A stretch of DNA of 64,000 nucleotides from the IMG/VR virus record IMGVR_UViG_3300045988_176357, positions 96,001 through 160,000 of that record. One strand, given 5' to 3'. The DNA is from a virus. Below are positions 1 through 28,972 of this stretch, in pieces; the first letter of the stretch is position 1; each line of letters starts with the position of its first letter. The notes beneath the pieces were generated by a model that worked only from the letters and a program-made list of their open reading frames with translations, ran no database searches and was not told where the DNA came from. The translations under genes were made by a program, and so were the position numbers.

Positions 1-2
1 GT

Positions 3-398
3 GCTTATGGTTTCTGGCGTGTCGGACAGAATGAAGAGGGTGTTGTGATCAGTCGCAGACAGCTCACATCCGCTGCAGCCGATGATGTCAATCTCGACGA
101 GCAGTCTATAGTCTGCAACATCGACAGCATCTGCATTTCGCTTAAGACCACCGGAAGAGATCTTGTTGGAAACTCGAATATCTCTCCGATGCTCCTGACA
201 TTGCTTAAATCTACGCTGCTTACGAAACTTGAAGGTTTCCAGCAGTATGTTACGGAGCTCATAGGTCCTCAGCTGCTCAGCGCATCTCTGGATTCGATCG
301 AACAGGACGAGATACATAAGGATAGAATCTATGCGGACATGTCTGGATAGCCTCCGAAGCCGTTCAACAGATTCCATATGAGATTCTATATGAATTGA
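3..398 (+). CDS. Hypothetical protein, 5' partial. Frame open from the window start, one in-frame TAG at 348, ends at TGA 396-398 (TAG-recoded).
   Basis: Manual frame trace: no TAA or TGA until 396; the track ORF 45..350 is a TAG-terminated fragment of it. Confidence 0.4.
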
Positions 399-409
399 GG
401 TGACAGAGA

Positions 410-925
410 ATGAAAAGCGTTTTCAATAACCCGTATACACAGGCTCCTTAGGTATGGTCTGCACAGGGTGCGGCTGTCACCTGGGGACAGACATAGGCTG
501 TCGCACAGGCGAATCAGGCTACAGCGAATAAAGTGTTTGCTGCTCTTGGCGGCATCACGATTAATTATCAGCGTCCTGTCAGCACGAGATATCCGATTGG
601 CGGATCTGCTCCGATTCAGCTTATCGGAGCCCCTTCCGGTGTAGTGCAGCTTAATACGCTCATCGGACCGTCTACGGAACTCAATGACTTCCTGGATGCT
701 CTGGCAAGTGCCTGTAAGCCGATAACGATTATCGTTACCAACTCTTCCAGTACATCGGGCTAGGATTGTGCTGTCAAGTCTAAGCCTCAGGAAATTGTAT
801 GTAACGGTGCGATTGGAAGTCAGGTGCAATACAATCTTATCATTGCTTAGGGTGGCATGGCTATTGCACAAGGTACATTTGTACTGCAGTTCACTGAGAT
901 GAAGTGGTCCAGTACGAACAGCTGA
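410..925 (+). CDS. Hypothetical late protein, TAG-recoded (4 in-frame TAG).
   Basis: GAGGTGA RBS then ATG 410. Frame runs to TGA 923-925 through several TAG codons; the track ORF 533..763 is an internal fragment. Confidence 0.5.
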
Positions 926-997
926 CACACAGTACATTGATGTTCAATGATGCGCATGTAAGTTACTACATGCGCATTTTTTATATAGGAGCCAACC

Positions 998-1879
998 TTG
1001 AGCGTTCTTAACAGCTTCACTCCATAGAACCAGCCTCTCACGTATGTGGGCAGCTAGGTTATAGCTGGTGTCATATAGGCCTGTCTGCCGAATACAGGTA
1101 CAGCAGTGGTTCGCACCCAGTCGGCAGGTGTCGACAGACAGTTCTCATGTAAGATGTGTGGTGGCGGAGGTATCTTTGGCGCGAGTGTAGCTGGTCTGCC
1201 TGCTGTCGGTTCATCTGTCATAGCCTGGATAAATAAAGCAACAGGTAAAGGCTACATTCTATCTGTGAATCCAGGCGGAGGGTAGCCTAAATCATACAAA
1301 CTATTCTCTTTGCTGCATACCTACAGATGGAACACACCTGTAGGCGACCTGACTTTTTCCACATAGCTGTAGACACTGATAAGCAAGTATGCAAACAGTG
1401 GCGTGAATTCGACTCCCTGCGGTGCCACGTAGGACACATATCCCGGCGACCTTGTAATCGGTGATAAGTATGGACCGTCTGCGTTCTTCGGGAGAGCTCA
1501 GATAACAATAAAGGGTTCCGGACTTGCCTATACAGAGTTCTCCGGACTGGACAACAGTATAACAGTTGTAGCTTAGCACGCTTAGTTCGACTCTTTCAGT
1601 CAGCTGATATAGCACAGTACAGATATAAGCAGATAGCTAACAGCATCTGGTGCCAAATAGGGTCTTGGTGTCCTGCAGACTAATAGCAGTAAACCTGTTG
1701 AGAATAATCCAGGAGACGGAAACACACCGTCAGTTGACTACAGTGCGTAGTCAGGTGATCCTATTTACAGAACGCAGGAATTTAAGGGCGGACTTGTATC
1801 CGGCCAGTTCAGTTCGGTACTGTCTCCTCTGCAGGATTAGTAGTATCAGGACATGGATATACCTGTGCTTGCTACTAAT
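998..1879 (+). CDS. Hypothetical Gly-rich structural protein, TAG-recoded. The TTG start is tentative.
   Basis: Frame 2 is open from 962 to TAA 1877-1879 with many in-frame TAGs. AGGAG sits 6 nt before TTG 998. Confidence 0.35.
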
Positions 1880-1930
1880 CATGTATCATACGATGGGTAG
1901 ACAGAAACAGTATCGGCAAAAAGCATCAGA

Positions 1931-3502
1931 ATGATAAAGACACCTGATATCTACGCTCCTCAGCAGATATCAGACTAGACAGCGGCTTAGTTATCCTAGA
2001 AGTAGATTCCTAAGTTTCAGACTCCTCAATATACCTCGACAGATAAAGCGCTGCAGATGGATGCGCTGCTGCAGCAATCAGGAACACAGTACATACTTAG
2101 GAACCAACTTACGGATTAGCAGATTCTCAGTTTGTATTCCAACAATGTACAGTGTCTTGCGTAGCCTCTGACAGCCAGGATAACGGATTGGACAGATTCT
2201 GGACAGGCGTCACAGCAATAGTTAGCTCCATGTCAGTACGCATAGATAACGGATACGTATACAGGACAGCAGAAGCGAGTGTATAAATGCGCGTCATTTA
2301 TCACTCAATAGTAGGATGGGTCTATCCTTATCAAGGATGGTTGGGGAAGTTAGATACGAATGACCGGAGGCAACATCTACATATCCAGTGCGCTCGATAC
2401 CTTTATTCGTCCGGGTCGTGACTGCATAGGTTTGATACCAAGACGTATGTAGCTGGATGCCAATGGAGCAGCTGTTATCGCCTCCAAGAAGTCAGTAAAG
2501 GTAGCTGCCTAGGGCAGTCTGTATCTGTCTTCTGCTGTAGGAGGACAAGATGGTTACACGGTGCTGTAGAACAGATCTAAAACATCGTCTGCCGGTATGG
2601 TGATACGCAGTAACGGCAACTTATCTCTCACTTCATCCAGAGATATGTACATAGGACTAAACGATAAGACAACTACGAACGCAGGAGATAAAGCTACCAG
2701 AGGCTCCGGTTCGATCTGCATCGATGGAAGTGTGCTCATGCTCAATGCGGACAGCTATATGAAAGCCACATCCGGATCCATAGGCTTGTATGGATATTCA
2801 GGTGGTACAGGAGCTGGCGTCGTCATAACGCCTAACGCAACAAGTGTGCTGTCACAGGCTTTCTATGTTAATGTAGGATCTACATTTGTTGGAGCACTCG
2901 GAGGAAGGAGCACTGTAACTGTCGGCAATACTGATCAAACTTTTACAGTCAGTGGAGGTTCAGGTTCAGGTATCATGCATGTCAGAGGCTCTATACAATG
3001 CAAAGATATCACAGCTGACGGCACTATGTCTGTAAATGGATCTTTCGGAGCCGCCAGCTATATGGTACTGGGAACAGAACAGGTAGATATAATACCTAAA
3101 GTAACAATAGATTCATTGCGAGCCTTCAAGCAGTCCATTGCTCGTATATTCCAATATAAAATAGATACTCCATCTATATCGTATCCAGAACAGACACAGC
3201 AATGGTACAACGACAACTATATCTGCAGCAAATAGCTGAGCTTCACCTAGTCAGGTGTGTTGAGCTTTGGTGAATACAAAATGCCAAAGATGTGCTGGCA
3301 GACAAATACCTAGTCCGGTCAGATCTTTTAGCCTGTAATAACAATGGAAACAGGTCAGGATCAGCCGACATCCAAGTCATATCCTGGTAAGTCTGCATGG
3401 TAGGCTGGTACAATTTCAACTCTAGATTAGAATTACTCAGTCAAATACGAACTGCCGCTACAGGGCAACTATACAGTGAATACAGATAAGGAGGACCAAT
3501 AA
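1931..3502 (+). CDS. Tail-fibre-like Gly/Ser/Thr-rich protein, TAG-recoded (about 25 in-frame TAG in 524 codons).
   Basis: Direct codon-by-codon translation shows no TAA or TGA from 1880 to TAA 3500-3502. The track ORF 2597..3235 is a fragment; the GSGSG/TVTVGNT-type composition is typical of fibres. Confidence 0.55.
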
Positions 3503-4080
3503 TGTCATAGACGAACACTTAGAAAGAACTGCTTACATGTCCGTGCTGTGGAAAACCGACATTCCAGGCTCCGGCTAAAGTCGATGACTAGACTAAACAC
3601 AGGTATCTTGCATGCATTATATCAGGCATGCCTTACAAGCAGACTTACAATCTTTTCGATCGGACAGTAAAAATAACTGTTACATAGTTATCCCCTCAGG
3701 TGACTGATAAGATGGTTCGTCTCGGTGCGCTTACTTCCTTGTAGCAGGATAAAGACAGGAAATCCGTCTTATCTGATCTGTTATCAAGACTGTATAGACT
3801 GCTGCCTGTATAGAACATCAGCATCGTTACAGACACCAGTGTATCTGATTACCACGTGAGCTCCGTATGTCTGTAGATTCTGGAGAAAGCTCTGCAACCT
3901 GACTGTACAACACAGCAACTGTCTGAAATGTACGCACGGCTTGTCGATCCTTCCGTTGTTACATCATTGTCAGCAGGTATTCTCGACAAGGTTCTGGTTA
4001 CACATTCAAGAACCATGGAGCTTCTGATTTCCAGTGGATTTGATGATTCTTTTTATCAGGGTATTCCGCACGCCTGTTAA
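3502..4080 (+). CDS. Hypothetical late protein, TAG-recoded (9 in-frame TAG).
   Basis: AAGGAGG RBS. ATG 3502 overlaps the upstream TAA as TAATG. Frame is open to TAA 4078-4080. Confidence 0.5.
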
Positions 4081-4184
4081 TGCTATCTCAGCAACGGGAT
4101 ACCTACGGAGCAATAAAAAGATACGCATAGCGCCCAACGGATCGCAATTTCCTGGCTGTTAAACTGCTGGCATCCTCCACGTAG

Positions 4185-4373: not shown

Positions 4374-4392
4374 TAACAGTTGAAAGACGTGC

Positions 4393-6891
4393 ATGAGTCA
4401 ATAGTCAAATATACTTAATCAAATTCTACAGGTGCTGTCATCTTTTGTTCAGCGTCCGCAGACTCAACTTGGAGATGACTATTGGCGCAGTGTATCCGGT
4501 ATGCAGACAGGCCCATACTCAATGCATAGCCTGTTACAGTCCACAGTTACATCCGCACTTGGTCCGCTGTTTGGCGGAATTGTAAACAAGCTGATCATAG
4601 GCGACTAGTTTAACAGAGCCGGAAATTTCTCCAGTCCCCTGGCCGGTATGCTGCTTCCAACAAATGGAGGTACATACAGCGGCGCTTTTGCCAGTATGGT
4701 TCAAGATTCGATGCGGACTGCTGCATACTGGAGTAGACAGCAGAACTAGAATGCTTTGAAGCGTGATTTCTACAGATCGTATTTTAATACCTTGTATCCT
4801 AACTAGTCAAATGCGCAGATATAGCAGCGTATATATGGTGTATAGAGAAATCCAATACAGGCTGCAGGGCTTATACAGGCATTTGCCGATCCGTACGAAG
4901 TAACAAGGACAATGCAGGGCATGTAGCTGGCTCAGGCAGGTGTCCTTCAATGGAGTACAAGGCGAAACCCGTTAGATACAAGTGCTGTTACTCGTGCCAA
5001 TCAGTTAGCTGCAGGTATCAGTCAGCTTTCGCAGCAGGCACAGCGCAGAGCAGTACTCGGACAAGGGGAATCTTTTGGGGGGTTCTCAGGAGGAGCTGTT
5101 GCCTAGCTCGCAGGCATAATAGCCAATGCCAGTGATCAGTTCGGTAATGTCAGCGGACAGTAGCTGGCATCAAGCATATAGCGATTCAAGACCAAAGTAA
5201 GAGACACTACAAGAGCTCTGCAGCCGTTAAGAGATATCTTTGGTCAGGACATTCGCTCTATGGTAAATGCCATACAGGGATTTACAGGTCAGAATATATC
5301 TCAACTGAGTGTGTCTGCTGTACAGAACATTTCGACAAGAATCGCCGATATACAGAGGTATGCTCCAGGTGTGTCAATGGGTCAGCTGGCTGATATGGGC
5401 GGTGCAATGCGCCGTATGCTGGCTAACAACGGAATTAGAGGATATGCCGGATTGGGAGCTGGCGTGCTTGGCGTTGAAGTTGCAGGTATGCTTATTCCGG
5501 GCAATACGTCCTATGGTATGACTCCTTAGTAGTTCCAGCAGGGAACGCTTAATGCCTACGCCAGTGCGCAAGGCAGCCGTGGCGTTGACTTCATGTCGAT
5601 GGCTTACAGTCTGTGGAGACAGAGGAACAGAACAGGAACAATCCAACAGTTCAGAGACAGAATCAGCTAGGCACAGGCTAACGGACAGGATGCACTTACA
5701 GCTGCCCGTAACCTTGCTGGCGTAAGCTCCAATGGCTAGCTGCTGAGAGGTCTGTAGTACTCTGATTACAGAGAGGCTCAGATGTCCGGCGCATTTGCTT
5801 CATCCGGTATCAGATAGCAATGGAGACAGCAGCGAGACATCAAAGAACTGCAGTTAATGCAGACAGGCCGCTGGACAAGAGCACAAATCAGCGCTGCCAT
5901 GCGTTAGTTCAGCAACCCTTAGGTCATGGCATAGCTCAGTCGTTCAGGTAATGTTGACCAGGTTCGTGGACTGAACTAGACATCCAGACGCATCATTAAC
6001 TGGGCTGTAAGTACTGACACGAATTTCCTGGCAGGTGCACGCAGAGTATCTCAGATACAGTAGCAGTAGCAGTTCGGACGTACCATGTCCACTATACGCA
6101 ATACATTCAAAGACATGGATGCCACAGGAGGAACAGGTTGGAATACATTTTTCAACAGGTTCATGACAAATAACTGGGGAGATCAGTCCGCTGTCTATAA
6201 GATGTTTGCTCAACAGGTATATGGGTAGACAGATGAGGCAAGAATAACTGAACGCAATACACAGCTGCGAAGTGCTTTAGGTTCGTCAGGGATGCAGTAG
6301 GCACTCCGATACGGGTTTCTTGGAGCCGGAAGGTCAGATAGCGACTATAGACAGCATCTAAAAACGCTCACACAAGCCGATAAGAGTACTCAATAGTACA
6401 AATAGGCGCAGAGATATGTTCTGTCCGCAATCGCAGTAGGCTAGGATAAAAAGCTTAAAGATCTGGCTGCAAGTAAATAGGGGCAGGATGCATACAACGC
6501 TTTTGCAGCAGCCCTGATGCAGGCTGACAACTAGACCGATCAGACAAAGCGTGCTGATGCTGTTCTCACTGCCAGAAGCAACTACAGGTACAGACTGAAT
6601 GCTCTCAGCCGCAGAAACGCACTTAAATAGAGCACTGATTAGTAGTTCACACTGCAGACCAGAAGAGATATGTAGACTCTGCTTAAGGCTTAGTCTGAAG
6701 GCACTGTTGTCAACTAGCAGTATTTCAATACCAACAAAGGCAGATTCAAGTCAATATAGTCTTTCAGCTAGTACAGCAGACTCAGAGCAAAGCTGGGCGG
6801 ATCAGATACAAACAGTGATCTGGCAGGCAAGTTGAACAGTGTTCTGTAGCGTATAGCCAACTTCCTCAAACAGATAGCTTAGAAGAAATGA
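4393..6891 (+). CDS. Tape-measure-like large tail protein, TAG-recoded (about 45 in-frame TAG in 833 codons). Start codon uncertain; ATG 4393 or 4501.
   Basis: Directly translated frame 1 has no TAA or TGA from 4384 to TGA 6889-6891. The track ORF 5260..5529 is an internal fragment. Size, Ala/Gly/Gln-rich composition and position after fibre and chaperone genes support the call. Confidence 0.5.
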
Positions 6892-6904
6892 ACAAGGCTG
6901 CTCT

Positions 6905-7387
6905 ATGTCAACTACGGTTTTCCCTATAACAAGTTATATACAATAGACAAAGCTGAAAGGTTACACATACGTTACGCTGAGCCTTGGATCTAAATAGCTG
7001 TATATAGCTCAGGCTCCGATAATGGGCATATAGATATCCTAGCAGATAGACTACAATCTAATAAAGTCTCTTTCAGGCAACTTTGGTATGCTTACCTTTG
7101 AGGACCATCCTGTCAGTATAACTATCTCCGGTTTGCGTATGGCCTTGTAGCCTACGTGCAGCTTGTCTTCTGCTAACCGCAATGCGACCACTATATAGAG
7201 CTTGTCTAAACTTTACATGGACTATAGAGGTTCTATAAAAAATGCTTCCCAGCAATCGCTGCTCACTATAACTGTAGGTACAGATACATATAAGGGAGTC
7301 ATTGTCAGTTTACAGCAGAGTTCAGCCAGCTAGAGTATGCCCGGAGTTATGCAATACCAGCTGACCATGTACGGAGCCAGAATATGA
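6905..7387 (+). CDS. Hypothetical tail protein, TAG-recoded.
   Basis: ATG 6905; frame 2 is open to TGA 7385-7387; 8 in-frame TAG. Its stop overlaps the next gene's ATG. Confidence 0.4.
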
Positions 7388-9072
7388 TGACGTTATACAC
7401 ATCCGGCTCATTTGTACTTTGTGTCAAGGTGTCCGGAGCTGTAAAGTATTACGCTGTAAAGAACTTCTATCTTCGCAAGGCTAAAGGCGCAATAACTCAG
7501 TGCCGGGTGAGCCTTATGGATGTTACCTGGCAGGTGGAAGTCAGAAATCTGTCTACATATCCGAAACTGTCGGCATTGGCATAGCTGTATAACAGTGCAT
7601 GTCAGCCTGAAACTAAACCCATGTAGTGCCAGCTGCTGTAGTACAACTCCAGATAGAACAGTGGACAGCCTGTACAATGGTTTACAGGACGTGTGTGCGT
7701 CGTAACTCCGGTTCTGGCATAGCGCCCTGGAATTACATCTTAGTATACATGTTTCTGCATGGGAAAGGCGTGCTAGCTGATGTTCTCCTATGTCAGCGAC
7801 TATAAGTATGTGGATGCTAAGTCTGCAAACAATGTGCCATAGCTGTAGAAAAACGGCCTTATAGGAGCCAACGCACAGGCAACCAATATATTCAGCACTG
7901 AAAAACTCGATACAGCGTTGCTGATTTCCAACAGCGGCCAGAGCATATAGGCCGACACCGTAGATCAGCTTTTTACCAAAGCATTCAATTACTTGCAGTA
8001 GATGCGGGCAAAACTGGCTCTTTTCGCATAGACGCCTACTATAGACTTATCCAAATACATAACCTCTCAGTACAAGATAAGTTCTGTAATCAAGTAGGCT
8101 ATCAAGGCGCCTGTAGACTTAGGACATAGTAATCCATATCTTATAGCCTTTGATCAGATGTTCGCATCAGGTATCGATAACAGGCAGCTCATCGATGCTA
8201 TAATGACTACTCTGGCCGGTTAGCGGTTCCTGACAACTGCGCCTGCTTAGCGAACACTTCCCGACGCTTAGGACAAATTGTTTATCATCCCTAATTATGT
8301 ATTGCCTGTTTAGACTCAAGATGCCATCATAACACCGGAAGACATCAATCTTGTACAGGTTACCGCCAATCCGTTGTCCCATTTAAGTATACCTGATAAA
8401 TTGTTTGTCAACCTGACGATGCTGTCGGCTTTCGATATGGGAACAAGATTGATACAGAATATACCTGGATTATATGGTGAGTACGAAGCGGTTACACCAG
8501 CCTCCAAGATAAAGCAGGCAGGTGCTCCGTGGTGGTTACTTACCATAGCTGTATAGAAGTCCAGATTCAAAACATATAAAGCCGATATGAAGAACATTCC
8601 TGTTGGTCAGTCGGTTGTCACATAGATATAGTAGAACGCAAGCTGGGCAGACGGAGCTAAACAGATGTTTGATACATATGCAAAGACACTGTATTTCAGT
8701 ATGTATGCTGCCTAGAAGCAAGCTACTGTGAGTCTGCTGCCGACTGATAAAGCTAAGGATATGGACAGGTATATAGGTAAGTCCATAGCTTTACAGCTTC
8801 CTTTAGATCAACAGAATCTGAATGACAGGAAATACAGTAAATTCTTCGGTGTTCTTGATTCAGTTACATATTAGTACGGATGCTCTACATCACCTCAGCA
8901 GTCGTCATATCTGACAATAACGGCAAATGTGACGGCGCTGACTCCATAGAGCTCTGCCTTCGCCAAGGCTATATTTCAGGATTAGCGGACACCTCTGCTC
9001 TATTAGAAAAGCCTGGCTACATCTGATATGTACGATTACAATAACAGCTCTGATTACAGTGGTTTAGCGTGA
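7384..9072 (+). CDS. Hypothetical large structural protein, TAG-recoded (563 codons).
   Basis: ATGATG at 7384. Directly translated frame 1 is open to TGA 9070-9072. The track ORF 7384..7584 is its N-terminal fragment. Confidence 0.5.
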
Positions 9073-9080
9073 GGTTTAAG

Positions 9081-9854
9081 ATGCCGGGTATATTTGAACA
9101 AATTAAAGGTCTGAATACTTCTTCTCAGAATATTGCGCCTAAACCTGTAAAGCAGCCGCAAGAAGATATCGTACAGACCATAGCCGATTGGCAGAAGAAG
9201 AGCACGCCTGAAACCACCAAACAGATATTGGACTTCATCAGGCCGACTATCGACAGTGCGCTTCATACCTATACACCTGGACAATAGAACACATTCAGAA
9301 TAAAAGCTACATCCTATGCCTTGCAGAGTCTGCGTAACTACGATGTGACAAAGAAAGTGTCTCCAAAGACCTTCGTGTTTTCAAACCTTCAAAGACTCAA
9401 CAGACTCAGAAGGTAGCGTTAGAATATCATTCATATCCCTTAGAATCAGGTCTATATGAAACAGATGCTGGACAATAAAACAGCTTAGCTGTAGAGTGAC
9501 CTGGGAAGACCGCCTACTGATTAGTAGCTGAGCTAGGCTCTGTATATCTCCAAGCGCAAACTGGATAAGCTGCGTTAGCAGTCCTCTGTTACCATAAGTT
9601 AGACAATGTCTCAAGATCCGTAGGGACACTAGATGCTTGGAGCGTCTGATGTCACGGACAGGGATTACTATAATTATGTCTACTCATCTGTATCTCCTGT
9701 AGATAAAAAGATAATGTAGTGGACATCCGGGTACAAAACAAAGCCGCTGTCCAATAATCAGATAGCTGAGAAACTGCATATATCACCTGGGGCTGTATCA
9801 CAGAGAAAGAACAGGATACAGCAGCTCATGGGTTAGGTCAGAGGTCTCGTATGA
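9081..9854 (+). CDS. Sigma-70-family sigma-factor-like protein (region 2 and region 4.2 HTH), TAG-recoded (about 17 in-frame TAG).
   Basis: GAGG RBS then ATG 9081. Frame 0 is open to TGA 9852-9854. The C-terminal LSNNQIAEKLHISPGAVSQRKNRIQQL matches the sigma region 4.2 pattern. The N-terminal IADWQKK..ILDFIRPTIDSALHTY resembles region 2. Confidence 0.45.
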
Positions 9855-10255
9855 GAAAACTTATACAGGAAGGCGGAGAAAAGCCAACCGGCTGCTCATT
9901 GCAGCAGCACGATAAGTTTATCAGGTATGCGATGAACCTCCGTTTAGAATCTCTATAGGATATAGTGGACGGCAGTCAGCAATACCGGGCAACTTAGGCA
10001 CAGAAACCTGCATAGGCATAGCTGTACCTGACAAACCTGGATTAGATTCTGCAGCCTCAGTTCTTGTCCCATCTGCAGAGTAATAAGGATCAGTCTGCAC
10101 AGGTATCTACATTTTAGCAGTACGGCTAGATATTCCGTATAAGCAGAGACTTACTGACTTGCACTTAGAAAAGAAAATCGAGACTGCTTGCCGGTGTCCA
10201 GGAAACGCTTGGAAAAGCATGGGCTAACAGTACAGCTGGAGATGTGTACTTATGA
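9851..10255 (+). CDS. Hypothetical protein, TAG-recoded.
   Basis: ATG 9851 overlaps the upstream stop as ATGA. Frame 2 is open to TGA 10253-10255. Confidence 0.35.
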
Positions 10256-10260
10256 AGGAT

Positions 10261-10614
10261 ATGCAGTTCACGTAGCCTAAAACAATGCTTATATAGCCAC
10301 ATGTGCTTGGAGTAACTTCTGTACAGGGGCTTATTCTGTATCAGAAAATACTTGTGCTTATGCTCAGCTCGTCTTCCTCCAGCTACAGAGAAAATGCCGG
10401 AACACAATTGATAGACTTGTTATCTGGCTCGAATACGCCATCTGACTAGCTTCTTACATCTCTCGGTTCCAACGCATGTGCACAGGCGAGATCTCTGCTG
10501 GACTCATAGGATATTGACAAAATGGACTCACTTACAGCATCTGCAAGTAATGGAGTCTTAAGTATAACCCTGCGGCTCAAAGACGGCTAGACATATACTG
10601 GAGAACTGTCGTGA
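10261..10614 (+). CDS. Hypothetical protein, TAG-recoded.
   Basis: AAGGA then ATG 10261; frame is open to TGA 10612-10614 with in-frame TAGs. Confidence 0.35.
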
Positions 10615-10673
10615 ATTTAACAGAACCAACAAATACTCAATTTCAGCAGGCCTAGTAGACACTGACCAATTTG

Positions 10674-15366: not shown

Positions 15367-15374
15367 GGTGGTAA

Positions 15375-16307: not shown

Positions 16308-16308
16308 T

Positions 16309-17607: not shown

Positions 17608-17623
17608 TCGGTGAGAGCAATAC

Positions 17624-18574
17624 ATGAGCTTTGTAACGACAGAGACAAGCGCACGTACAGATACGTACCCTTTCACATGTTAGGTGCCTTTCGGCAATTA
17701 CTTTATATAGTCGATAAAGTTAGCCCTTAAAGATGTACAGCAGCAGCCTTCTCTTAACATATTGACATCTAAACAGGGCTAGTGCTCGATAACACTGATG
17801 TCGGGTTCTGTAGTGTTGGCTACTGTATAGTATGCAGGCAATCTGTGGATGACTTTTGATACAGCACATGCTTTCGGTTTCGTTAAGTTGCGTGTCAGAC
17901 CTTCTCACACTATAAATTTTTCAGGAAAGCTGCCTCTCCATCCGCTTACATATACATATAGCTACAACAATAAAGGTATCACCAGTATTCAGGCTAACGA
18001 CGACGTGAAGCCTGTCGGAGATACATTAAACATTACTGTGATAGGATCTATCCAGTGTGATAAAGACTAGTTAAACTTTACGAACAAGGGTGCTTTAGGT
18101 GGACCTGACTGGCCTTTCAGTATTCAGAGATTTGACATGGCAGGCAATGTTGTCGGCTATCCGGGAACTCTTACAATAACGCCTGTAGTTAAAAACTCAT
18201 AGCTCATAGCTAACTAGTATGTTGGACAGAATATATGGTATGGTGACACTTACGGTGGTGTAACCCATGCGTATCTGCCTAGTGCTGATTATATGTATAT
18301 AAGACGTACGCAATAGTCATTGTACAACTTCATATAGACGCCTATAGAATCCAATTAGGTAGTATATACAAACACATAGGTAGGAAAATATATACAGAAC
18401 ATCAATGGGACTCAGACGCAGAACCTGAACATAACAAGTGTATGCGAGCAGATATCTGTTACAGGACCCGTTGCTGTTGGAGACTCTGTCTATGTGATCT
18501 ATGTCTCATCCAATCCGGGCTTCCCTACATGCGCCTAGTATGACAGTGATTCCTTGTCATCTACTGGAAGCTGA
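17624..18574 (+). CDS. Hypothetical protein, TAG-recoded.
   Basis: ATG 17624; frame is open to TGA 18572-18574. The track ORF 17849..18070 is a fragment. Confidence 0.4.
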
Positions 18575-18599
18575 TCTGCAATAAACAAAAGAGGTAATA

Positions 18600-19370
18600 A
18601 TGAACATTCTTAATGCAGATACGCAGCAGGTGCGGACATTTTCGAAATATCCGTTCGATTAGGCTTCCACTATGCAGATATATAACTACATAGTAAAATC
18701 TACGTGGATACCATCTGTAGGTATTTGTGTATAGCAGGCTAGATTCCCTCTATATATAAGCGGTTTTACACACAACAGCGCCACTACATGCAAGTTACAT
18801 ATAAGTGACAATACAGCTACTGAAATAGCTTATGCCGTACTGTACAGATAGCGCAGTACGGCCCAGACAGCAGGTATATAGAGTGCCGATAAAGTTGTAG
18901 CTTCGCTAGTGGATGTATATGGACATGTCTGTGGGCAATTAATGTATGATGTATAGTTTTCCGGATTCATTCTGAATGTGCTTACTACGGAGCATCTCGG
19001 ATAGATAGCACTGAGCGCGAACAACCTCATACTGTCTCCATAGTGTATAACATGTACACATACAGTGGGGTGTAAACAGGTCATATTTAATGGAAAATAC
19101 AAATATAAAGGGAGTACAACTCTGATTTTCCAGCGCAATGTGACACTCACCGACAGCGGAATACTATCAACACCGTCTATAAATGTGTATGGGGATAAAG
19201 ATACCACAGATGTATCCGCCATTGCATATCAGGCACCGAAGTACCTCAAATATGTGAACGGTAAAGACCTGTCTGGCAGCCATGTGCTGATTAAACCGAT
19301 TGCTCTTTCAGATCTTCGAGTGATAACCAACACAGGAACTATAACGTTCTCAGGGGTACGGAATGCTTGA
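18600..19370 (+). CDS. Hypothetical protein, TAG-recoded.
   Basis: AGAGG RBS then ATG 18600. Frame is open to TGA 19368-19370, the same end as the track ORF 19065..19370. Confidence 0.45.
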
Positions 19371-20127
19371 TAAACTGTACAATATATCTGCTGTATATCC
19401 ATTCTATAACCATACTGGATTGTCTGATACAGACAGACAGACAGCCGGATGTATAGCTTGCTGCAGAATATAGATACGAAAACCGAGACTCAGGCAATTT
19501 TTAGCAGGCTAGGATTACTACAAACCTATTCAGGATACAAATATTCCGACGCAGATAGTTCTTGAAAGAACAGAACCGGGCAAGGCTGTATTTAAAGTGC
19601 AATACGGTTACTATGAGTAGCCGTGGTACATAACATGGACAAGGGATGGGACTTGCTCAGGCACTTTTCTTGTTTCATGCTATATGTAGCTGACAGCTTA
19701 GCTGCCTACATATACAGGCAGCTCTTTAATTCTCCTTAATTAGTGCATGATAATCAGAACGCCTGGAGTAGTGCTGCATGCCGCATCGGATGGAATCCAA
19801 TAGACAGGCGGGATATATCCTAACCAGACCATGTATACGAATGTCAAAGGTTTCTGTGACGGATATAACTGTCAGGTAAGTGCATAGGATTCCAATTTGA
19901 TTATACTGTCGTCGGCTGCAGCAGGTAAAGGGAGACCTAAATACAATGATGTGTGGGGTTCAGACTCACAGGAGTCTTAGTTACCAGCGGAAGCTCCGAC
20001 AGGTGTGCGCACTATAAACACAAGCACGGGAAGCGTAACTTTTCTATCTATAGGCGATGTAACGCAGAACGTTGTTGTTACTTAGTAGGATGACGAAGTT
20101 ACAACTACAGTACAATTAAGTATCTGA
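19363..20127 (+). CDS. Hypothetical protein, TAG-recoded.
   Basis: ATG 19363 overlaps the upstream gene end by 8 nt. Frame is open to TGA 20125-20127. Confidence 0.4.
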
Positions 20128-20133
20128 GCTTAT

Positions 20134-21129
20134 ATGAAACACCTTAAGAAAGACAGATGCGGATGGAAAGAGTATTAGTGTGTAGGCATTAAAGACCTGT
20201 TCTCCGACTCTATATCCATATGCTGTGACACGACAAATTATGATTAGACTGGCGGGTAGAGATAGAACGACTATAACTACCTGAATCTGCCTGTATCTTT
20301 TTAGGGTGTAGTCAACATAGTTCCATTTGCCAACCTGTAGTCACTTGGAGGTGGCGTCGGATGTATATCCAGCTACGATCCGATGGGGGACGGCTTGCAG
20401 GACTGGTTTGACAAAGTCAGTAAAAATTCTGACTACATAGCGGCATATGGTAACTTCAGAGCTTCTCTGGCTTGCTATTTTGATTCTTAGAAGTAGCGTC
20501 CGGGGATAATGACACCGAAAGCTACGCTGAGTCCGTTTAACACAGCACCTTCAGTAGTTGTCCCGACGTCTTAGCTGCGTGTATAGCCTAACGTGGGCGG
20601 CGGAGGTACAAGTTCGTGGGATGGACAGAGTGCCTGCGCTAACGGGTTCGCTATAATACCGCTGGATCACAAGGGCTCTGGATATAGACTGTATGTAAGT
20701 TCAGGCGATGCTATACCTTCTGTAAATGCAAACGGATAGGCTGTATCCTATTACGTAGAAGGAAGATATCCGGAGGGATAGGGTGCTAGATATAAGTCTG
20801 ATCTGTAGGTATACCTGACAGCCAAATATGACTTTACCACCGCAAAATGGGACTTCGGAATTGCGGTCGTGCAGCAGGATCAGGATTGGTAGACTGCTGT
20901 GGACAGATAGTAGTGGGAAAAGGTGACTCTGCTGGGCACTGTAAGTTGTGTCCGGAATGGTAACGCGAAGGTATAGACATACGTAACGCAGACAGCTTGC
21001 TCTCCTGTCGATATGCGCGACTTTGTTTCTTAGGTTCCTATGCCGTCAGGTACTGATACATCAATGTATGTATTCGCTTATCTTGGCAGCAGCAAGATAA
21101 AGAAATGGGTACAGGTAAAGGACTGTTGA
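20134..21129 (+). CDS. Hypothetical protein, TAG-recoded (332 codons).
   Basis: ATG 20134; frame is open to TGA 21127-21129. Confidence 0.4.
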
Positions 21130-21180
21130 CTTACATGTAACTTCAGCTAGGCTTAATGAAACTAACTGAAGGAATATAAC

Positions 21181-21894
21181 ATGCCAAACTGTCCATGTCC
21201 GTAGTTCGACATTTAGAAGTACAAAGATAAGCCTTACTAGGAAACTCCTTGTGCCAAGTGTTTCCTGTCAAAGTAGACTACCAACACACATAAACACTCA
21301 TAGCTGTTCGACACAGACGGTGTGTAGTCTCAGCAACCTGTCAAACGTCCGTAGCCTGTGTAGATATAGGATATCCTTCCTGAAAAAATTTCTCCTGACA
21401 CGTTGGCTATAATCGTATAGGCGTGTCAGCAGAACTTTATTCTTACACTCAGCAATCTGGTGCTCAAACTTACACGTCTGTCCAAGACATATCCTGTACT
21501 GTTTTAGATTCTCACATACAAGATGCAGCATCCATAGATGTCTTACTTCGAGATAGGCAGGAAGCTTAATCCGCCGTGCTCAAAGCAGAACGTGCTGTAT
21601 CACCTGTCGCACGCTGTCAGATAGTTCCCTCAACTGGAGAAGAGCATTGTTACAGATACAAGGTTCTCAGGAGGAAGATACGCACTGAAGACCATAGCAT
21701 AGCTGGCATCCAGGATCAAGCAGGTGTAGATCGTGCGGCGTAAATTATACGAGCAGAACTAGTACAACACACGTAAAGAGTTCGACGAACTGAAGAGATA
21801 GCTGTAGAGACCATATAAGGTTAACATCATCAGCGAGTTCGACAGCTATCTTCATGAATCCGACAGCGGAGACGACAATGTTAAGAGCAGATGA
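21181..21894 (+). CDS. Hypothetical protein, TAG-recoded. Very TAG-dense, about 24 in 238 codons.
   Basis: ATG 21181; frame is open to TGA 21892-21894. Confidence 0.4.
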
Positions 21895-21991
21895 ATAGGT
21901 ATTCAAACTTAATGATTCAAGAGTTAAGGCACTGTCAACAGGTAAGCTGACTGTAGCTGCACTTGCATATACTATCAAACCTGGAGACTAC

Positions 21992-22981
21992 ATGATACTG
22001 TACAAGAATACAGTATATGCACTGACAGAAGACTAGTACTATGCCGCTCAACAGATGGACATGTAGAAGTATCTGACAAAAGAAGCATTCTAGCAGGTAC
22101 TCAAATAGGATATAGACAAGCTCGATACAGTAGACAGGAAAGCCGCATAGAGAATCAAGAACAGCAAGACCAATTGTTCCACCTGCCAGTACAACTCGTA
22201 CAAGACTCAGCTGCTCAGAATCATGCAGAAGTATCCATGGCTGCTCAGCAAGTACAATCTTGTGAAGATAAAGCGCCAGATACGGCAATACCCATAGGTA
22301 TCGTAGCCTGTTATATCGAAGGTAAGCGCTCTGTTCCCTACGTTCTTCCAGAAAGTTGAATACGACAGGAAACCGTGTCTTGACTGCGTGTAGAAGCACA
22401 TAGGCATGGCGTACATAAAAGGATGCTAGGCGCAACAGGGCTATCCTGAGCATCTTGTACTTGCAGTAGCTAATTTGCAGGAAGCATATGAGGAATGCCC
22501 TAAGGACTGCTCCGCTATAAGAGAGATGCTGCTGTTCTGCATAGGCAAGACAAAGATCGAGAACAAAGCGTTTATTCCGCTGGATAATCTCCTGTATCTT
22601 ATATAGATAGCCAGACAGGAAACAAGCATGTCGTAGGCTCTGGATAAGAATAAAGCGGATTAGTCGTTCGACCTGTAGCTCGATTAGCAGATGAAGCAGG
22701 AACTTGCAGAGATTCCTGTGCTTAAGAAGCTGGATATAATGAACGAACTTAAGGCGCTCATTGCACTTGAGTACAGCAACAAAGACCACATATCTGTCAA
22801 GTATCAGGGATACATGGGCAGTCTTGCAGACATGATATTGCCGTTTTCTGTGAAGGTAAGTAATCTGATCAGGAACAGGCGCCTTATGTTCAAGGCGTGT
22901 CCGTAGTTAGTGCGTCAGACTGAGTATGATTGCAAAGATTTACAGGAAGCGTTGAAGAGTCCGATGGCGAAAAAGGACTGA
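21992..22981 (+). CDS. Hypothetical Cys-motif protein with CxxC pairs, TAG-recoded.
   Basis: ATG 21992; frame is open to TGA 22979-22981. The track ORF 22691..22906 is a fragment. The antisense ORF 21935..22789 is a shadow. Confidence 0.4.
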
Positions 22982-23243
22982 TCTACTACAGAATATCAAA
23001 TTCCATGCCGTAGATGCACATTGTTCCGCTGTTGCTTGTATCGGACTGTGATTCAGAGCTCTAACTGTAGCTTATGCTGTAGCTGGAGCTCTGTGACTAT
23101 GAACCTGACAATGACTGCGAATATGACACAGAGTCGGAGCACGCTGTTCCTGTTGTAAACTAAAAGGCAGTGGCCTGTGCAGAGTTCAGATAGTTCAGAG
23201 CTTTAACAAGCGCTGTTACACCTGTCTTTATTCCGTTTATAGC

Positions 23244-23486
23244 ATGCTGAGCCTGGAAGTCGTTACGAACTCTGAGCTTTATACTGTCTGTGCGGAAATA
23301 CGCGTAATCATCCATAATCTCGGACGGATAATCCTACATATCCACAGGATCTGCAATATGACTGAATCTGTAGTCAGGCTACTTATTGAAGTTCTTCGGC
23401 AGCTTCTATATTACAAAAACATTTGTATCTACGTTACAGGCGGAGGTTGCTTTGCATTCAATATCAACAGCCGCCTTATATCCTGA
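23244..23486 (+). CDS. Small ORF with no TAG, embedded in the recoded region.
   Basis: ORF-track entry ending in TGA. The absence of TAG over 80 codons is unusual here. May be spurious. Confidence 0.2.
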   Translation: MLSLEVVTNSELYTVCAEIRVIIHNLGRIILHIHRICNMTESVVRLLIEVLRQLLYYKNICIYVTGGGCFAFNINSRLIS

Positions 23487-23815
23487 TCGCTGATATCTTT
23501 TGACACTGAAGTGCAGAGTTATGTTCATTGCTGCTCCGTAAATGTGACGCCGCCAATTGTAATTGGCAATTTGAAATTCTATTTAAGAAAAGCATTAAAG
23601 GCTTTATTATATTGTAAGCGCAAAGCAGCTGCTTTCAGTATAGTATGCTTATTTACCTGTTTATGCGGGCACGTTGGACAGCCCTTGATAGCGGCTGACG
23701 CAGCTGCCATAAGAGGGAAGGACTTTAAGTCCATATTGAGTAATTTTTGCTAATCAGGTGTTAAAAACATTTTGCGCTCCTTATGAGCTGGGCGCGTTCA
23801 ACTGGAAAGAATAGA

Positions 23816-24712: not shown

Positions 24713-24735
24713 ACCTATTCTAGCGCAAAGACTGT

Positions 24736-25326
24736 ATGGTTCCTGTATATGCTCTTGCTGCTGTATCCAAGTTTCAGTAGTAGGCTGTAAACTGGGACCC
24801 TCTGGTACTGCGCGACGCATTTTAGGCTCAGTTCAACTGCAAACTGTCACAGCGCGGTTTTGACAAGCTGATGGCAGGTACGTCCATGATAGGTACAAAC
24901 CTGTTCACAGCATCCATATAGAGCTTTTTAGCCTGTACTGCAGCTTGTGCCAACAGAAGCATACAGTCATCACAGCTGAACTATGTATCTCTGAAAGAAT
25001 GCTGTTGGTCTGTATTCGTGTACAAAGATATGATCGGATACAACCAGCAGGAACAGCAAGATCAGTTCGATCCGGATATAGTGATGTATATACAGGGCCT
25101 TATGGATATATAGGGTATATCCAAACTACCTTCATACATGTCCTTTGTCTAGCTGCCGACGTAGAGGATGGCGACTATATAGCAGGCTCTGGTAGGTGAC
25201 GTCACATCGTTCTAGGCCTACAACACAAGGCAGCTGAACTAGATGCAGGATATAAATGCCTACGTGATGCAGATGCAGGCAGATCTTGTATAGCAGCTGA
25301 AGCTGTTGGATCCTATTATACACTGA
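24736..25326 (+). CDS. Hypothetical protein, TAG-recoded. Last late gene on the + strand.
   Basis: ATG 24736; frame is open to TGA 25324-25326. Confidence 0.35.
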
Positions 25327-27115
25327 ATTATTCTCAAAGGGAAAAGTGTGTATTTTCCTTTGAAAATAGCTAAAAAATGACCACTTTTTTGGCATAATAA
25401 TATGGAGAAGCTTTTAGAGCTTTTCTATGGATGGACTTATCCATCCGGTTTCACGGTGCTGTATTGAGGTCGACTTATGTTGACTGTCAATACAGCACCA
25501 TTCGAATTTGTGACTATTGTTTTCTGTTACCCTGCTTAAATTTTTACTTAGTAGTCGTATATGCATCAGCTACTGTTGCTCGCTGGTAAATTACAACCTA
25601 AGTAAGTTTAGCTACGATGTGAACAAGAAGCTGCTACGGCTTCGATTTGTAGAAGGACCGCCGCGTGTCCGTTACTGATTTCCACTGGAAATTTCATAAG
25701 CGATCTGCCTCTCGTGGTTACGAAGGCCAGATCGCACCTGAAATTACCAAAGAAAATACAAGACATCGTTATCTGAGCATGCAGTTGTTACAACTGCTGT
25801 AAACACATACTAATGGTGGTATGTGATCATATTTCCTGGTACTAGGTATTATGTACCAGGAAATCGATAGATATACAGGTGAACAGTTCGACAAGCAGTC
25901 GGCTGGATATGTCACACTATTTTATTTATGCGGATTCTGTTGCTCTTGTGTCTTGGTTCATTTTAATATTCAATAGACTTCGTATCAGTTACTGATACAC
26001 TTAGAGACCATGTGAGACACATATGTGTGTCTATTACCCTCAGCATACCTCCAGAGTGATACTCTGGAGGTTAACTTTAGGGTAATAAAAGTATTGAATA
26101 TGTTGCCAACAGATGACTAGTACGTGAAATAGAAGTCGTTGCGACTTCGCATCGGATTTGATAAATACCTTATCAAACAAATGAACGGCTGAGAGGCGAC
26201 CCGCCAGGCCCAATTGAGGCACTTGGCTACAGCCAAGTGACCACAAGTGGGCATCGGCGTACGCCTCCCGCCTATCGTTGAGACGTTAAAGCCTGAATCT
26301 ACAATCGTTACGATTGCTTGTATGCTGGCTAGGACAGTATATATGTTATAATTGGAAGGATCATGCTATTATTGATCCTTCCAATTTTAGAGGCGATGAC
26401 TAGTTTATTTATTTGGTAAAACAGATGCACACTAACACGTTACGTGTTATTTTACAGCATACAATGGACAACGTTGTATCGCGGTATGTTCTTACTTATG
26501 AAGCCTGCGGCGAGCGCAAAACTCTGCTGTCTATCGACGCAGACTTCAGCGCACCGACGCAGCTTCAGAACTAAGAACAGATCAGATCTGTAAATAAAGC
26601 TGAACTCGAGTCCGTTACGGATTCACAAATGTGTATTACTCAATGCGTGATACACAACAATCCTGGTGCTGCATGGAGCACCTCCGAACAGCACCAGGAT
26701 TCAGAGCTTATACCCCAACACAGCTAAAGCTTTCTCAAGCTAAGCTATAAACTTGGCATCAGGAACAACAGAATTCGCAAACCCTCCAAGCCCGTCCCAC
26801 TGTCCTGCAAGACGCTGTTTAACAGCCTATCTTATCCGCACACCAAGATCCTACAGAACCAGTTTGATCTATTGGCTCTGCACATGGAAGCCTTTCTGCT
26901 CCCATCTGACCCAAATCGGGTACCACCTTGCAAACCGCTTGCATGCGGTAGGCAGAGGATATATAGTATCCCTTCTTCCCTATTTGCCGCGCAACACAAC
27001 GTTGCCGTTTATTGACTAGAGTCTTCTGACCTAGTCAAAAGTGAACTTAGCGTGACTCATAGACTAGTACTGCGTTGCTTCTTTTTTTAGCCTATAGTCA
27101 TTGTTACTGTCAAGT
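25327..27115. other. 1.8 kb non-coding, hairpin-rich region between the convergent late-gene block and terL.
   Basis: No long ORF in any frame even with TAG read as sense. Several strong perfect inverted repeats, e.g. the 13-bp arms near 25455-25500 and the stem near 26042-26064. Confidence 0.5.
26042..26075 (+). terminator. Candidate intrinsic terminator.
   Basis: A 10-bp stem cctccagagt/actctggagg with a GATA loop is followed by TTAACTTT. Confidence 0.3.
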
Positions 27116-28936
27116 TTAATAACTTTCATATACATCCTCCTATGGGTCTATTACAACAGGGTGACTGGAGACGGCCTGCACGAACTGACTGAACTAGGAT
27201 CTTGGACTGAAGTTCTGATACTAAGCGGCCAGCACAGAAGTGTCGAACTTCTAGCCCAGCACAGGAAATATTCCGAACTTATGCCATAAGGCTGAGCAGG
27301 CAAAGTTGACGGCATGTGCAAAGTCATCAGGCACACCTGGTTTCTTGCCTATGAAGACAACTGTCCTGTTGCCTATATACGCTCTTGGATCCTACTTAAG
27401 CGCAAGAAAGTCATAGGCAAGCTAAGTCTTATCCTATACATTGAACTTCATTATACGTACAGACGTATCTTTCAGCGCCTGCACAATAAGAGCAAGACTT
27501 CTGGACTTGTCTATTGTATAGTTATAATAGTCAGCCTGCTGCTGAGCTTTGTCGTAGCTTATGATGTCGCCTTTCTTAGGTCCGGTATATGTGAACGGAA
27601 CAGGATACGTGCTTGTGAGCAGCAATCCTCGCTGCTTCATGATCTACATGCGCACAAAACCCGCACCACCGTTATCGTGTGCAAATATATCAGGATGCAG
27701 GATATCTATCCATTGCATCAGCTACTAGGCCTGCTATGTCGGCGTCGTTCCTTTAGGGTATCTCTTGCCGAACAATATATCTATGCGGTCTGTATCCGTT
27801 CGCAACCCTGCTACACACGCAGTTGTGAACGACTATGATACAGCGCCCCCTCCGTCCCAGTCTACACCTATGACTATGCATCTGTACATGTGCCTGATAC
27901 CGAGTATATCCTGTACTGAAGCGATGTTGTAGTCATGTTGGGCTGCAACAAGATCACGCAATGTCAGAGGATTGACTGACTAGTCATACGGCCAGCCGAA
28001 AACTTCATTGTACACACGCAGCTTGGAATAACTGTCGACTTTAGCCAGAAGGTCGTACCATTTTCTAGGTTCATTGGTAGCCTAGTCGATCGTAAGATGC
28101 AGCGGATGTATCGGCTGCCCTATATGGTAGCCTGGGAAAGTGAACTGTCTCTAAGGTACGGCATGTACGAAGCCTCCGTTATGTGGAAACACAGTGCGCC
28201 CACACCTGGAACACACAAGGCCGTTCTTTCCGAGCATTCCAAGAAGATCGTGCTATGGATTGGGTATATTGAAATGGTTGCAGTGTGTGCATCTTATTAT
28301 CCACTATGCCTGCGATGACTTATCCCACAGGATACCGCAAGTAGTATCTGTCGTAGTCGGAGTACCCGCATACATGGAATACCCGTGCCGCAGGTTGGCC
28401 GACATAACCTCACGTATGACAGGCACGAAACTGAAATCCACGTCGGCAAGCTCGTCTATGACTATCTGTGAGCATCCGGACAGGCCTCGCAGAGCATCTG
28501 CGTTGGCGTAAGCGGTGCCCAGATACATGAACGAGCCGACATTGAACTGCTTCAGCAGAGTTTTGCTGAGCTATACTTTTTTGATAAGAGATCCGCATAT
28601 CGGACTGGACTCAAGCAGAGGTTTCAGAATGGTAGTGTGATATCGTGTCCTCTGTTCATCTCTTGGTTCGATATGAAGTATATCATAAAACGGTATCAGA
28701 CTGGAACGCAGTACAGACGACTAGGCTATCTGATAGGTCTTACCGACCTGTCGTCCAGTCATCCATACCTGCTATCTAGGATATATAGTGTTGAACATGG
28801 GTGCGAACTGATAGTGCAGATCCAATGTCAGAGGTTTCCCCTTAAGAGAGAAGATACTCAACAGTGGAATGAACGTCCTCAGTTTGTCCTAGGCGATAGC
28901 ATTCAAACACGATTTAACAGCATCAATTAAAGTCAT
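27116..28936 (-). CDS. Terminase large subunit-like ATPase, TAG-recoded (606 aa with several in-frame TAG).
   Basis: Minus-strand frame traced from ATG 28936 to TAA at 27116-27118. Walker A is QVWMTGRQVGKT; a Walker B-like IVIDELADVD follows. The size fits TerL. Track ORFs 27434..27640(-) and 28304..28528(-) are fragments. The + ORF 27314..27838 is its antisense shadow. Confidence 0.5.
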
Positions 28937-28972
28937 AGTAATTCAAGCATAAAACAGAAAGGAAAAACGAAA

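Follow-up and report, generated by a model that had tools for sequence, protein, structure and literature searches.

Glutamate as the probable meaning of amber codons in the late genes of a human-gut phage

What does the amber codon mean in phage late genes that carry up to 39 of them in frame? The question is raised by the virus record IMGVR_UViG_3300045988_176357, of which we analysed positions 96,001 to 160,000 (64 kb; hereafter, the window), part of a human-gut tailed phage of about 95 kb. A first-pass annotation had read TAG as sense throughout the late block of this phage, and had held that the amino acid inserted there cannot be read from the DNA. We find that TAG is indeed a sense codon in the late block, where TAA and TGA are the sole terminators, but that its meaning is more accessible than supposed: composition and homologue alignments point to glutamate, and the TAG codons of the late genes very probably stand mainly for this residue.

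The use of TAG as sense is seen most directly in coding density. Open reading frames (ORFs) of at least 100 aa cover 41.6% of positions 1-25300 under the standard code (code 11) and 99.1% when TAG is sense, above the bar of about 85% set beforehand; making TGA or TAA sense instead brings coverage only to 81%, and positions 28970-64000 are already 95% covered under code 11. The 25 recoded frames, on the plus strand from 3 to 25326 and in three minus-strand genes (22890-23582, 26704-27135 and 27116-28936, the last encoding the large terminase subunit, TerL), hold about 390 in-frame TAG (4.4% of codons) and, as had been claimed, not a single TAA or TGA. The 22 long frames (plus strand, 404 to 25326; minus-strand TerL frame, 27116-28942) contain 370 TAG in 8447 codons (4.38%), from 2 to 39 per frame, and terminate in TGA (16) or TAA (6). 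TAA and TGA together occur about 31 times per kb over all frames of the plus strand, so that about 26 would be expected in a frame of 846 codons, in which none is observed. The TAG trinucleotide itself has a density of 20.6 per kb in the late block versus 6.5 per kb in the early block; the base following it (the +4 position) shows no suppression-favouring bias. In-frame use is thus of one stop type, restores coding density, and is confined to late, structural and packaging genes, with the exception of a TnpB-like ORF and a GIY-YIG-like gene described below. The same pattern is found in independent assemblies from several samples and in a sister genome, IMGVR_UViG_3300045988_177579 (91-97% identical; its pieces include L010 and L012), in which 281 of the 305 codon pairs with TAG in either genome have it in both. 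Codon differences between the two are mostly synonymous, as purifying selection predicts.

Three recoded genes are recognised by homology, and full-length alignments of two of them, TerL and baseplate, with standard-code homologues span the TAG sites:

27116-28936, minus strand: TerL, 21 TAG; phrog_675, E=2e-33; Walker A motif GRQVGKT, Walker B motif IVIDE
10551-12158, plus strand: baseplate wedge subunit homologue, 25 TAG; phrog_6, E=5e-21; start codon uncertain
9081-9854, plus strand: sigma-factor-like gene, 15 TAG; phrog_351, E=8e-6

The first-pass call of a recoded terL-like gene is hereby confirmed. The baseplate gene had been described as fibre-like, with about 25 TAG in 524 codons; the number of TAG holds, but the frame has 535 codons and the fibre label has to be dropped. 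The count given for the sigma-like gene (about 17 in 258) comes close to the actual 15 in 266 codons (9054-9854). As for the structural character ascribed to the whole late half, homology supports it only for TerL and the baseplate wedge, the other late proteins apart from the sigma-like one being without a PHROG match.

Which residue, then, does TAG encode? In amino acid composition, TAG takes the place of glutamate: Glu codons (GAR) make up 1.72% of late versus 6.14% of early codons (-4.42), and TAG 4.38% versus 0.06% (+4.32). Aspartate is nearly level (5.45% late, 5.75% early) and Gln codons (CAR) are not depleted (5.2% late, 3.8% early). In each late gene TAG accounts for 47-88% of TAG plus GAR codons, and for 72% overall (370 TAG versus 145 GAA/GAG). 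The same compensation is seen in the recoded relatives L003, L004 and L005.

Homologues concur. TerL sequences drawn from a database of 5.8 billion proteins fall into a standard-looking group (E about 4.6%, Q about 3.4%) and a group of close relatives (E 0.7-4.8%, Q 5-9%), whose Q excess is an artefact since the database translates TAG as Q, as confirmed by the DNA of L001, L003 and L004. At the 21 TerL TAG sites, 85 standard-code homologues have E in 36%, D in 21% and Q in less than 3% of cases; E reaches 100% at sites 122, 211 and 515 and 92% at site 431, and four TAG columns are at least 90% Glu in 84 standard-code homologues. True Glu sites have such a profile, and Gln sites do not. The 25 baseplate TAG sites give E 24%, D 16% and Q below 4%, and those at positions 57 and 220 are invariant Glu in 22 standard-code homologues. 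Over several genes, TAG in the window meets 31 E, 8 D and at most one Q in L002, a 176-kb phage with the standard code, and 43 E and 6 Q in L005, which is low in TAG; against L003, gene by gene, it meets TAG 49, E 24, D 11 and Q 10 times. UAG thus aligns with glutamate, as it does in stop-to-Glu codes.

For a quantitative comparison, likelihoods were computed over 45 columns, using substitution profiles learned from the same alignments. The log-likelihoods are -107.3 for E, -122.5 for Q, -124.6 for D and -156.9 for R, so that Glu beats Gln by 15 nats; the controls for this residue inference were internal column sets, and each held-out set (E, Q, D, K, S, T or A columns) was assigned to the right residue. 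The codons themselves can be followed in five recoded genomes. In nine TerL columns that are at least 90% E in the 84 homologues, these have TAG 15, GAA 12, GAG 9 and CAR 9 times, all nine CAR being confined to two columns; in six conserved-Gln columns (at least 90% Q), they have CAG 19 times and TAG not once. In the column of the Walker B glutamate they read GAG, GAG, TAG, GAA and GAG, the TAG being that of L003. Replacement of this catalytic Glu by Gln is the classic hydrolysis-dead substitution in this class of ATPases. Database-wide, 16 TerL and 36 baseplate clusters (90% identity) bear the same signature, and the invariant-Glu columns of the recoded TerL set contain only E (77) or the database's 'Q' (67). 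Entries of the public protein database (P0001-P0014, P0031, P0121-P0159) are full-length, with Gln at every TAG and 'Q' in invariant-Glu columns; if TAG is Glu, they are systematic mistranslations.

A candidate decoder is found in the sister genome, where a tRNA(CUA) lies at L012 2636-2709, about 5.1 kb upstream of the window start. It adjoins a tRNA-Met(CAU), both on the strand opposite the late operon, and these are the only two tRNAs in the sister DNA scanned (about 81 kb of the 95-kb contig; two gaps of about 11.7 kb correspond to tRNA-free stretches of the window, and the scan ended 2.1 kb short of the contig end). The same pair, with the CCA end encoded, occurs in three human-gut metagenome contigs of 75-111 kb, which identifies the human gut as the habitat. 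A scan for consensus terminators found nothing 3' of tRNA(CUA), and folding gave no more than a weak stem with a U-run after it (z = -2.0).

The tRNA(CUA) folds in ARAGORN into a conventional class I cloverleaf with a 7-bp acceptor, 4-bp D, 5-bp anticodon and 5-bp T stem. It has G1-C72, C2-G71, U3-A70 and G73, a 7-nt D-loop (AAUGGCA) with C at position 20, U11-A24 and U13.G22, and the anticodon loop CUCUAAA. The bacterial Gln identity set comprises U1-A72, G2-C71, G3-C70, G10, U35, G36, A37, U38 and G73 (PMC9976931); tRNA(CUA) shares only G10, U35, A37 and G73, with A36 and A38 differing. The E. coli Glu set consists of U34, U35, C36, A37, G1-C72, U2-A71, U11-A24, U13-G22:A46 and no residue 47 (PMC9976931), of which about half is present (U35, A37, G1-C72, U11-A24, U13.G22). 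Bacterial tRNA-Arg is recognised by A20, C35, U/G36 and A/G73 (PMC9976931); here the acceptor stem and G73 fit, but position 20 is C and the anticodon has U35 and A36. Bacterial GatCAB, finally, rejects tRNAs with G1-C72 (PMC2811023).

Attempts to read the amino acid from this tRNA led to little. Its nearest phage tRNAs, other CTA suppressors and tRNA-Asn at about 80% identity, were uninformative as to isotype. Its Gln-like anticodon arm, GCGGACUCUAAAUCCGC (17 nt), is identical in ten phage tRNA(CUA) genes from IMG/VR (L051-L060), whose acceptor, D and T arms are unrelated and some of which have long variable arms; as it is common to ten suppressors with unrelated bodies, we attribute it to suppressor function and reject it as a sign of ancestry. 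Its recurrence suggests that an arm optimised for amber suppression was either reached by convergence or exchanged. Other tRNA(CUA) genes, on the metagenome contigs L181, L185, L188, L183 and L186, have the D-arm UAGUUUAAUGG in common and differ in their acceptor stems, and several of them, adjoining a tRNA-Trp, show a Trp-like A1-U72 pair. More than one isotype may thus have given rise to phage amber suppressors, whose meanings perhaps differ as well.

Several observations weigh against glutamate. The window itself contains no tRNA (ARAGORN; Rfam at gathering threshold). The tRNA(CUA) of the sister lacks U34 (C), C36 (A), U2-A71 (C-G) and the shortened variable loop, and its body is unlike that of bacterial tRNA-Glu; the same acceptor stem belongs to tRNA-Arg in 104 of 120 cellular hits, although Arg identity is excluded by the protein data. 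The Glu-type D-stem pairs U11-A24 and U13.G22 are found in tRNAs of other isotypes too (Arg, Gly, Trp), and we reject them as isotype evidence. What we say of the host, of the charging enzyme, of when expression takes place and of what becomes of release factor 1 is inferred. The most discordant signal comes from the exchanges between window and sister, where TAG is replaced by CAG 13 times, CAA once, GAG and GAA twice each, TAT twice, and TCG and GAC once each; the commonest change is thus TAG to CAG (13 versus 4 to GAR), as TAG=Gln predicts. The rate of this transition (0.023) is about half that of synonymous transitions (0.04-0.08) and at the upper end of the range for conservative non-synonymous ones. 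The four transversions from TAG to GAR match a neutral expectation of about four, and CAR to GAR exchanges number 0 of 456. Overall, the closest-pair exchange rates for Glu versus Gln give an intermediate outcome. Ten TAG-to-CAG sites could be checked, and at eight of them an acidic codon (Glu or Asp) or TAG is present in one or more outgroups; the exchanges would fit tolerated Glu-to-Gln replacements at variable acidic sites, without being decisive.

An intermediate rate of exchange is also what ambiguous decoding would produce, that is, a Glu/Gln mixture at TAG arising by partial transamidation of Glu-tRNA(CUA) or by competition between the glutaminyl- and glutamyl-tRNA synthetases (GlnRS, GluRS). 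Amber suppressors are prone to glutaminylation through U35 (PMC9976931), and 6 to 13 TAG sites per genome pair align with Gln in relatives. However, TAG occupies invariant, probably catalytic Glu sites, where a Gln fraction would inactivate the protein; conserved Gln columns are without TAG; and G1-C72 is selected against by bacterial GatCAB (PMC2811023). We regard such a mixture as very unlikely.

About as unlikely is code 15, in which TAG is read as glutamine by a glutaminylated amber suppressor, as in crAss-like and Lak phages, and which the first-pass annotation had suggested for re-calling the genes. In its favour, every described phage that differs from its host at TAG uses Gln (10.1101/2021.08.26.457843; PMC9523058, PMC10607447), 13 of the 22 changes at TAG versus the sister lead to CAG, and two TerL columns conserved as Glu in outgroups are CAG or CAA in this subclade, with TAG in one member. 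Yet it would yield late proteins with 9.6% Gln and 1.7% Glu, versus 3.8% and 6.1% in early ones, and the depletion of Gln codons that it entails is not seen. Nor does TAG align with Gln: it is found in none of the 19 conserved-Gln codons and 15 times in conserved-Glu columns, alternating with GAA and GAG. Under code 15, Gln would moreover replace the Walker B catalytic Glu of the L003 TerL, the likelihood is 15 nats lower, and U1-A72, G2-C71, G3-C70, G36 and U38 are missing from the tRNA(CUA). Glutamine as the sole reading thus appears very unlikely.

A residue other than these two, be it aspartate, pyrrolysine or arginine, is extremely improbable. Aspartate is second commonest at TAG sites (16-21%), but its likelihood is far below that of Glu and its frequency in late genes is normal; arginine is suggested by the acceptor stem, but has a lower likelihood still, and the determinants A20 and C35 are absent from the tRNA. 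The ARAGORN label 'tRNA-Pyl' follows the anticodon alone, the cloverleaf being of the conventional class I; pyrrolysine decoding would call for a pylS/pylBCD gene set and the atypical fold of tRNA-Pyl, but no family of the pyrrolysine pathway is among the domain matches in 76 scanned ORFs, and sparse UAG use would be expected, in contrast to TAG at 4.4% of codons and in alignment with Glu. That the TAGs are real stops, owing to gene decay, assembly artefacts or occasional near-cognate read-through, might be thought from the tRNA-free window and the lack of a family match for most late proteins, but is next to impossible given about 390 TAG beside zero TAA and TGA, 281 positions kept in a sister that differs mostly synonymously, recurrence in independent assemblies, standard-code homologues aligning full-length across the TAGs, and up to 39 stops per gene, which leaky read-through cannot pass.

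With glutamate as the preferred reading, the remaining late genes of the window are as follows:

3-398, plus strand: 3' end of a late gene (681 codons) with its start upstream of the window; 1 TAG in 132 codons
410-925, plus strand: recoded late gene, 4 TAG
962-3502, plus strand: recoded late gene of 846 codons, 37 TAG; no PHROG match
3502-4080, plus strand: recoded late gene, 7 TAG
4393-6891, plus strand: recoded late gene (about 832 codons) with 39 TAG; only its size and composition are tape-measure-like; no PHROG match
6905-7387, plus strand: recoded late gene with 7 TAG if it starts at the proposed ATG (6905); the stop-to-stop frame, 6836-7387, has 9
7384-9072, plus strand: recoded late gene, 26 TAG
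9851-10255, plus strand: recoded late gene, 8 TAG
12158-13483, plus strand: recoded late gene, 18 TAG
13783-15366, plus strand: recoded late gene, 16 TAG
15375-16307, plus strand: recoded late gene, 15 TAG, which make up 88% of its TAG plus GAR codons
16309-17607, plus strand: recoded late gene, 22 TAG
17624-18574, 18600-19370, 19363-20127 and 20134-21129, plus strand: four recoded late genes with 12, 7, 11 and 18 TAG
21181-21894 and about 21878-22981, plus strand: two recoded late genes with 18 and 16 TAG
22890-23582, minus strand: recoded gene missed by the first-pass annotation, 8 TAG; conserved in L001 (95%), L003, L004, L005 and L002
23783-24712 and 24709-25326, plus strand: two recoded late genes with 14 and 12 TAG
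25330-26700: gap (about 1.4 kb) without tRNA and, in either code, without a convincing ORF
26704-27135, minus strand: small recoded gene downstream of TerL, likewise missed, 9 TAG stop-to-stop and 8 from the proposed start at 27135; conserved in L001, L003, L004, L005 and L002

The full 681-codon ORF is present in the sister (L012 6139-8184) with 9 TAG, sparse compared with 4-7% in its neighbours; it may be the most highly expressed structural gene. The tape-measure-like gene had been credited with about 45 TAG in 833 codons, close to but not exactly the 39 in 835 (4384-6891) that we count. When 18 further late proteins were compared with PHROG in two scans, ten of them with TAG as Glu, no named family was found, and the sole match was borderline (E = 0.0099), to a family of unknown function. 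At the place of the gap, relatives have a tRNA: tRNA-Leu(TAA) in L003 and tRNA-Ile(TAT) in L004.

The other half of the window presents a different picture:

28973-64000, plus strand: early and replication block of about 48 ORFs, essentially free of TAG as sense and as stop
30327-31136, plus strand: sigma-70 factor, TAG-free; Sigma70 regions r2, r3 and r4
32838-33923 and 35829-37514, plus strand: SbcCD-like nuclease genes, by domain matches
34646-35791, plus strand: TnpB-like ORF with one in-frame TAG (34937), where its paralogue has Phe
40132-41649, plus strand: helicase, by domain match
43225-44340, plus strand: intact TnpB copy; Pfam OrfB_IS605, Cas12f1-like TNB, HTH
46916-47731: protein of the formate/nitrite-transporter family, an unusual cargo
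47917-50415, plus strand: intein-interrupted KaiC/DnaB-like ATPase (helicase) of 832 aa, with a Hint domain and a LAGLIDADG homing endonuclease
52672-53943 and 56700-57677: two proteins with DUF7666 and pentapeptide repeats, likewise unusual cargo, of which further copies lie beyond the window end

The first-pass annotation had assigned the standard code to this half. Its genes are intact in that code, but since TAG is avoided both as sense and as stop, the early half is code-neutral rather than demonstrably standard. Its plus-strand terminators are 24 TGA, 22 TAA and 2 TAG. The only clear TAG terminator is that of the gene at 53945-54343, with a TGA two codons later, so that read-through after a code switch would add only three residues. 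A plus-strand gene accounts for two minus-strand ORFs, at 61997-62941 and 63139-63855, which were discarded as antisense artefacts.

Two sigma-type factors are thus encoded, an early TAG-free one (30327-31136) and a late one with 15 TAG (9081-9854), which points to a transcription cascade with a suppression-dependent last step. The phage genome has three genes of the TnpB/OrfB_IS605 type (34646-35791, 43225-44340 and L013 14683-15837); the TAG-bearing copy is either decaying or translated by read-through at a late stage of infection. In the sister, a GIY-YIG-like homing-endonuclease gene some 0.6 kb past the window end (L010 5393-6094) carries 15 in-frame TAG amid TAG-free early genes, so the late block is not the strict limit of recoding. 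The sister also encodes a reverse transcriptase (L010 14935-15882; Pfam RVT_1, E=8e-26, YADD motif), about 10 kb past the window end.

Megablast against GenBank phages found no close relative of the window, tblastn found no relative of the TerL lineage above 25% identity among 50,697 GenBank phage records, and no solved structure sequence-related to TerL was found. Among the recoded relatives, L001, L003, L004 and L005 have orthologues of the genes at 17624-21129. L005, a contig of logan:SRR32285420, has a TerL 67% identical to that of the window and uses TAG far more rarely (one in TerL, 2.5% in TAG-bearing ORFs), with GAA or GAG at positions where the window has TAG; it may represent an early or reverting stage of recoding.

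How could such a system work? From the sequences we consider it highly probable that the late genes are written in a code in which TAG is Glu and only TAA and TGA are stops. The early genes and the tRNA(CUA) would be expressed first, by the host machinery, and as the early genes avoid TAG, they would be read in the same way before and after the code switch. The tRNA(CUA) would then receive glutamate, most likely from the GluRS of the host, and the resulting Glu-tRNA(CUA) would escape conversion to Gln-tRNA because of G1-C72. Only afterwards would the TAG-dense late genes, with the second sigma-like factor, terminase and baseplate among them, be translated in full. At 95% suppression per codon, a gene with 39 TAG yields about 13% full-length product; near-complete suppression at each TAG is needed, so that release factor 1 would have to be outcompeted or neutralised. 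Among 76 TAG-free ORFs of window and sister, no aminoacyl-tRNA synthetase, amidotransferase or release-factor domain was found.

Taken together, these elements can be combined, tentatively, into a scenario in which a clade of human-gut phages (75-190 kb; at least 16 TerL and at least 36 baseplate clusters at 90% identity) uses a code found in no current table, with TAG as Glu and TAA and TGA as stops. Its tRNA(CUA), with an Arg-type acceptor stem and with A20 and C35, the Arg determinants, lost, would form a natural orthogonal pair, being glutamylated by the host GluRS and escaping GatCAB and GlnRS; a phage function would silence release factor 1, enabling up to 39 TAG per gene; and public translations with Gln would be wrong at about 4% of residues.

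Phage recoding is assumed to be TAG to Gln or TGA to Trp, and gene callers, NCBI table 15 and the database used here hard-wire Gln. If TAG is Glu, bacteria-infecting viruses have more natural reassignments than that, and it can no longer be argued that GlnRS and TrpRS are the only synthetases open to hijacking. Thousands of deposited proteins would have Gln for Glu at 3-5% of positions, catalytic residues included; such mistranslation would degrade homology searches, structure prediction and proteomic identification, as a Q-based search database misses all such peptides. Synthetic biology, too, would gain a useful part in a natural tRNA(CUA) with efficient Glu insertion at hundreds of sites, and, with TAG so dense, what becomes of release factor 1 in infected cells can be tested directly.

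Among known systems, the code 15 gut phages (crAss-like, Lak, Garnet/Topaz, phAss-1) come closest, with the same bias of TAG to late, structural and packaging genes, host-code-compatible early genes and TAA and TGA stops (10.1101/2021.08.26.457843; PMC9523058; PMC10607447). The human-gut habitat is shared too, as is the lack of a phage aminoacyl-tRNA synthetase (here, among the 76 ORFs scanned), and their tRNA(CUA) has a counterpart in the sister genome. However, the residue is Gln there and, by our reading, Glu here, the suppressor lacks the Gln identity of the acceptor stem, and TAG makes up 72% of the late codons for its amino acid. Borges et al. saw only TAG to Gln and TGA to Trp where phage and host codes are not the same (10.1101/2021.08.26.457843), proteomic validation of TAG reassignment concerns TAG to Gln only (PMC9523058), and our full-text literature searches turned up no phage reported to read TAG as Glu.

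Outside phages, stop-to-Glu codes have precedents in cells. The nuclear code of Blastocrithidia reportedly has such a reassignment, and in peritrich ciliates both UAA and UAG are Glu (PMC11687900). The likeness to the peritrich type lies in the decoding of UAG as glutamate by a dedicated suppressor tRNA; the difference is that UAA is reassigned there too, whereas here it is absent in frame and ends 6 of the 22 late genes, and that theirs is the code of a whole cellular genome, not one split in time within a virus. Glutamylation of a CUA-anticodon tRNA and Glu insertion at UAG in bacteria are also reported for the engineered E. coli amber suppressor GluA (of the Kleina, Normanly, Abelson and Miller series), a tRNA-Glu derivative with a CUA anticodon. 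Such suppressors are artificial, of low efficiency and built on a tRNA-Glu body, unlike the phage tRNA with its Arg-like acceptor stem and its approximately 390 sites. A natural route by which a tRNA with C/U34-U35 receives Glu first is provided by the indirect Gln-tRNA pathway (a non-discriminating GluRS, then GatCAB), in which G1-C72 blocks amidation (PMC9976931, PMC2811023). The architecture described here is thus the known late-gene stop recoding of gut phages; what is new, in all likelihood, is the residue, glutamate.

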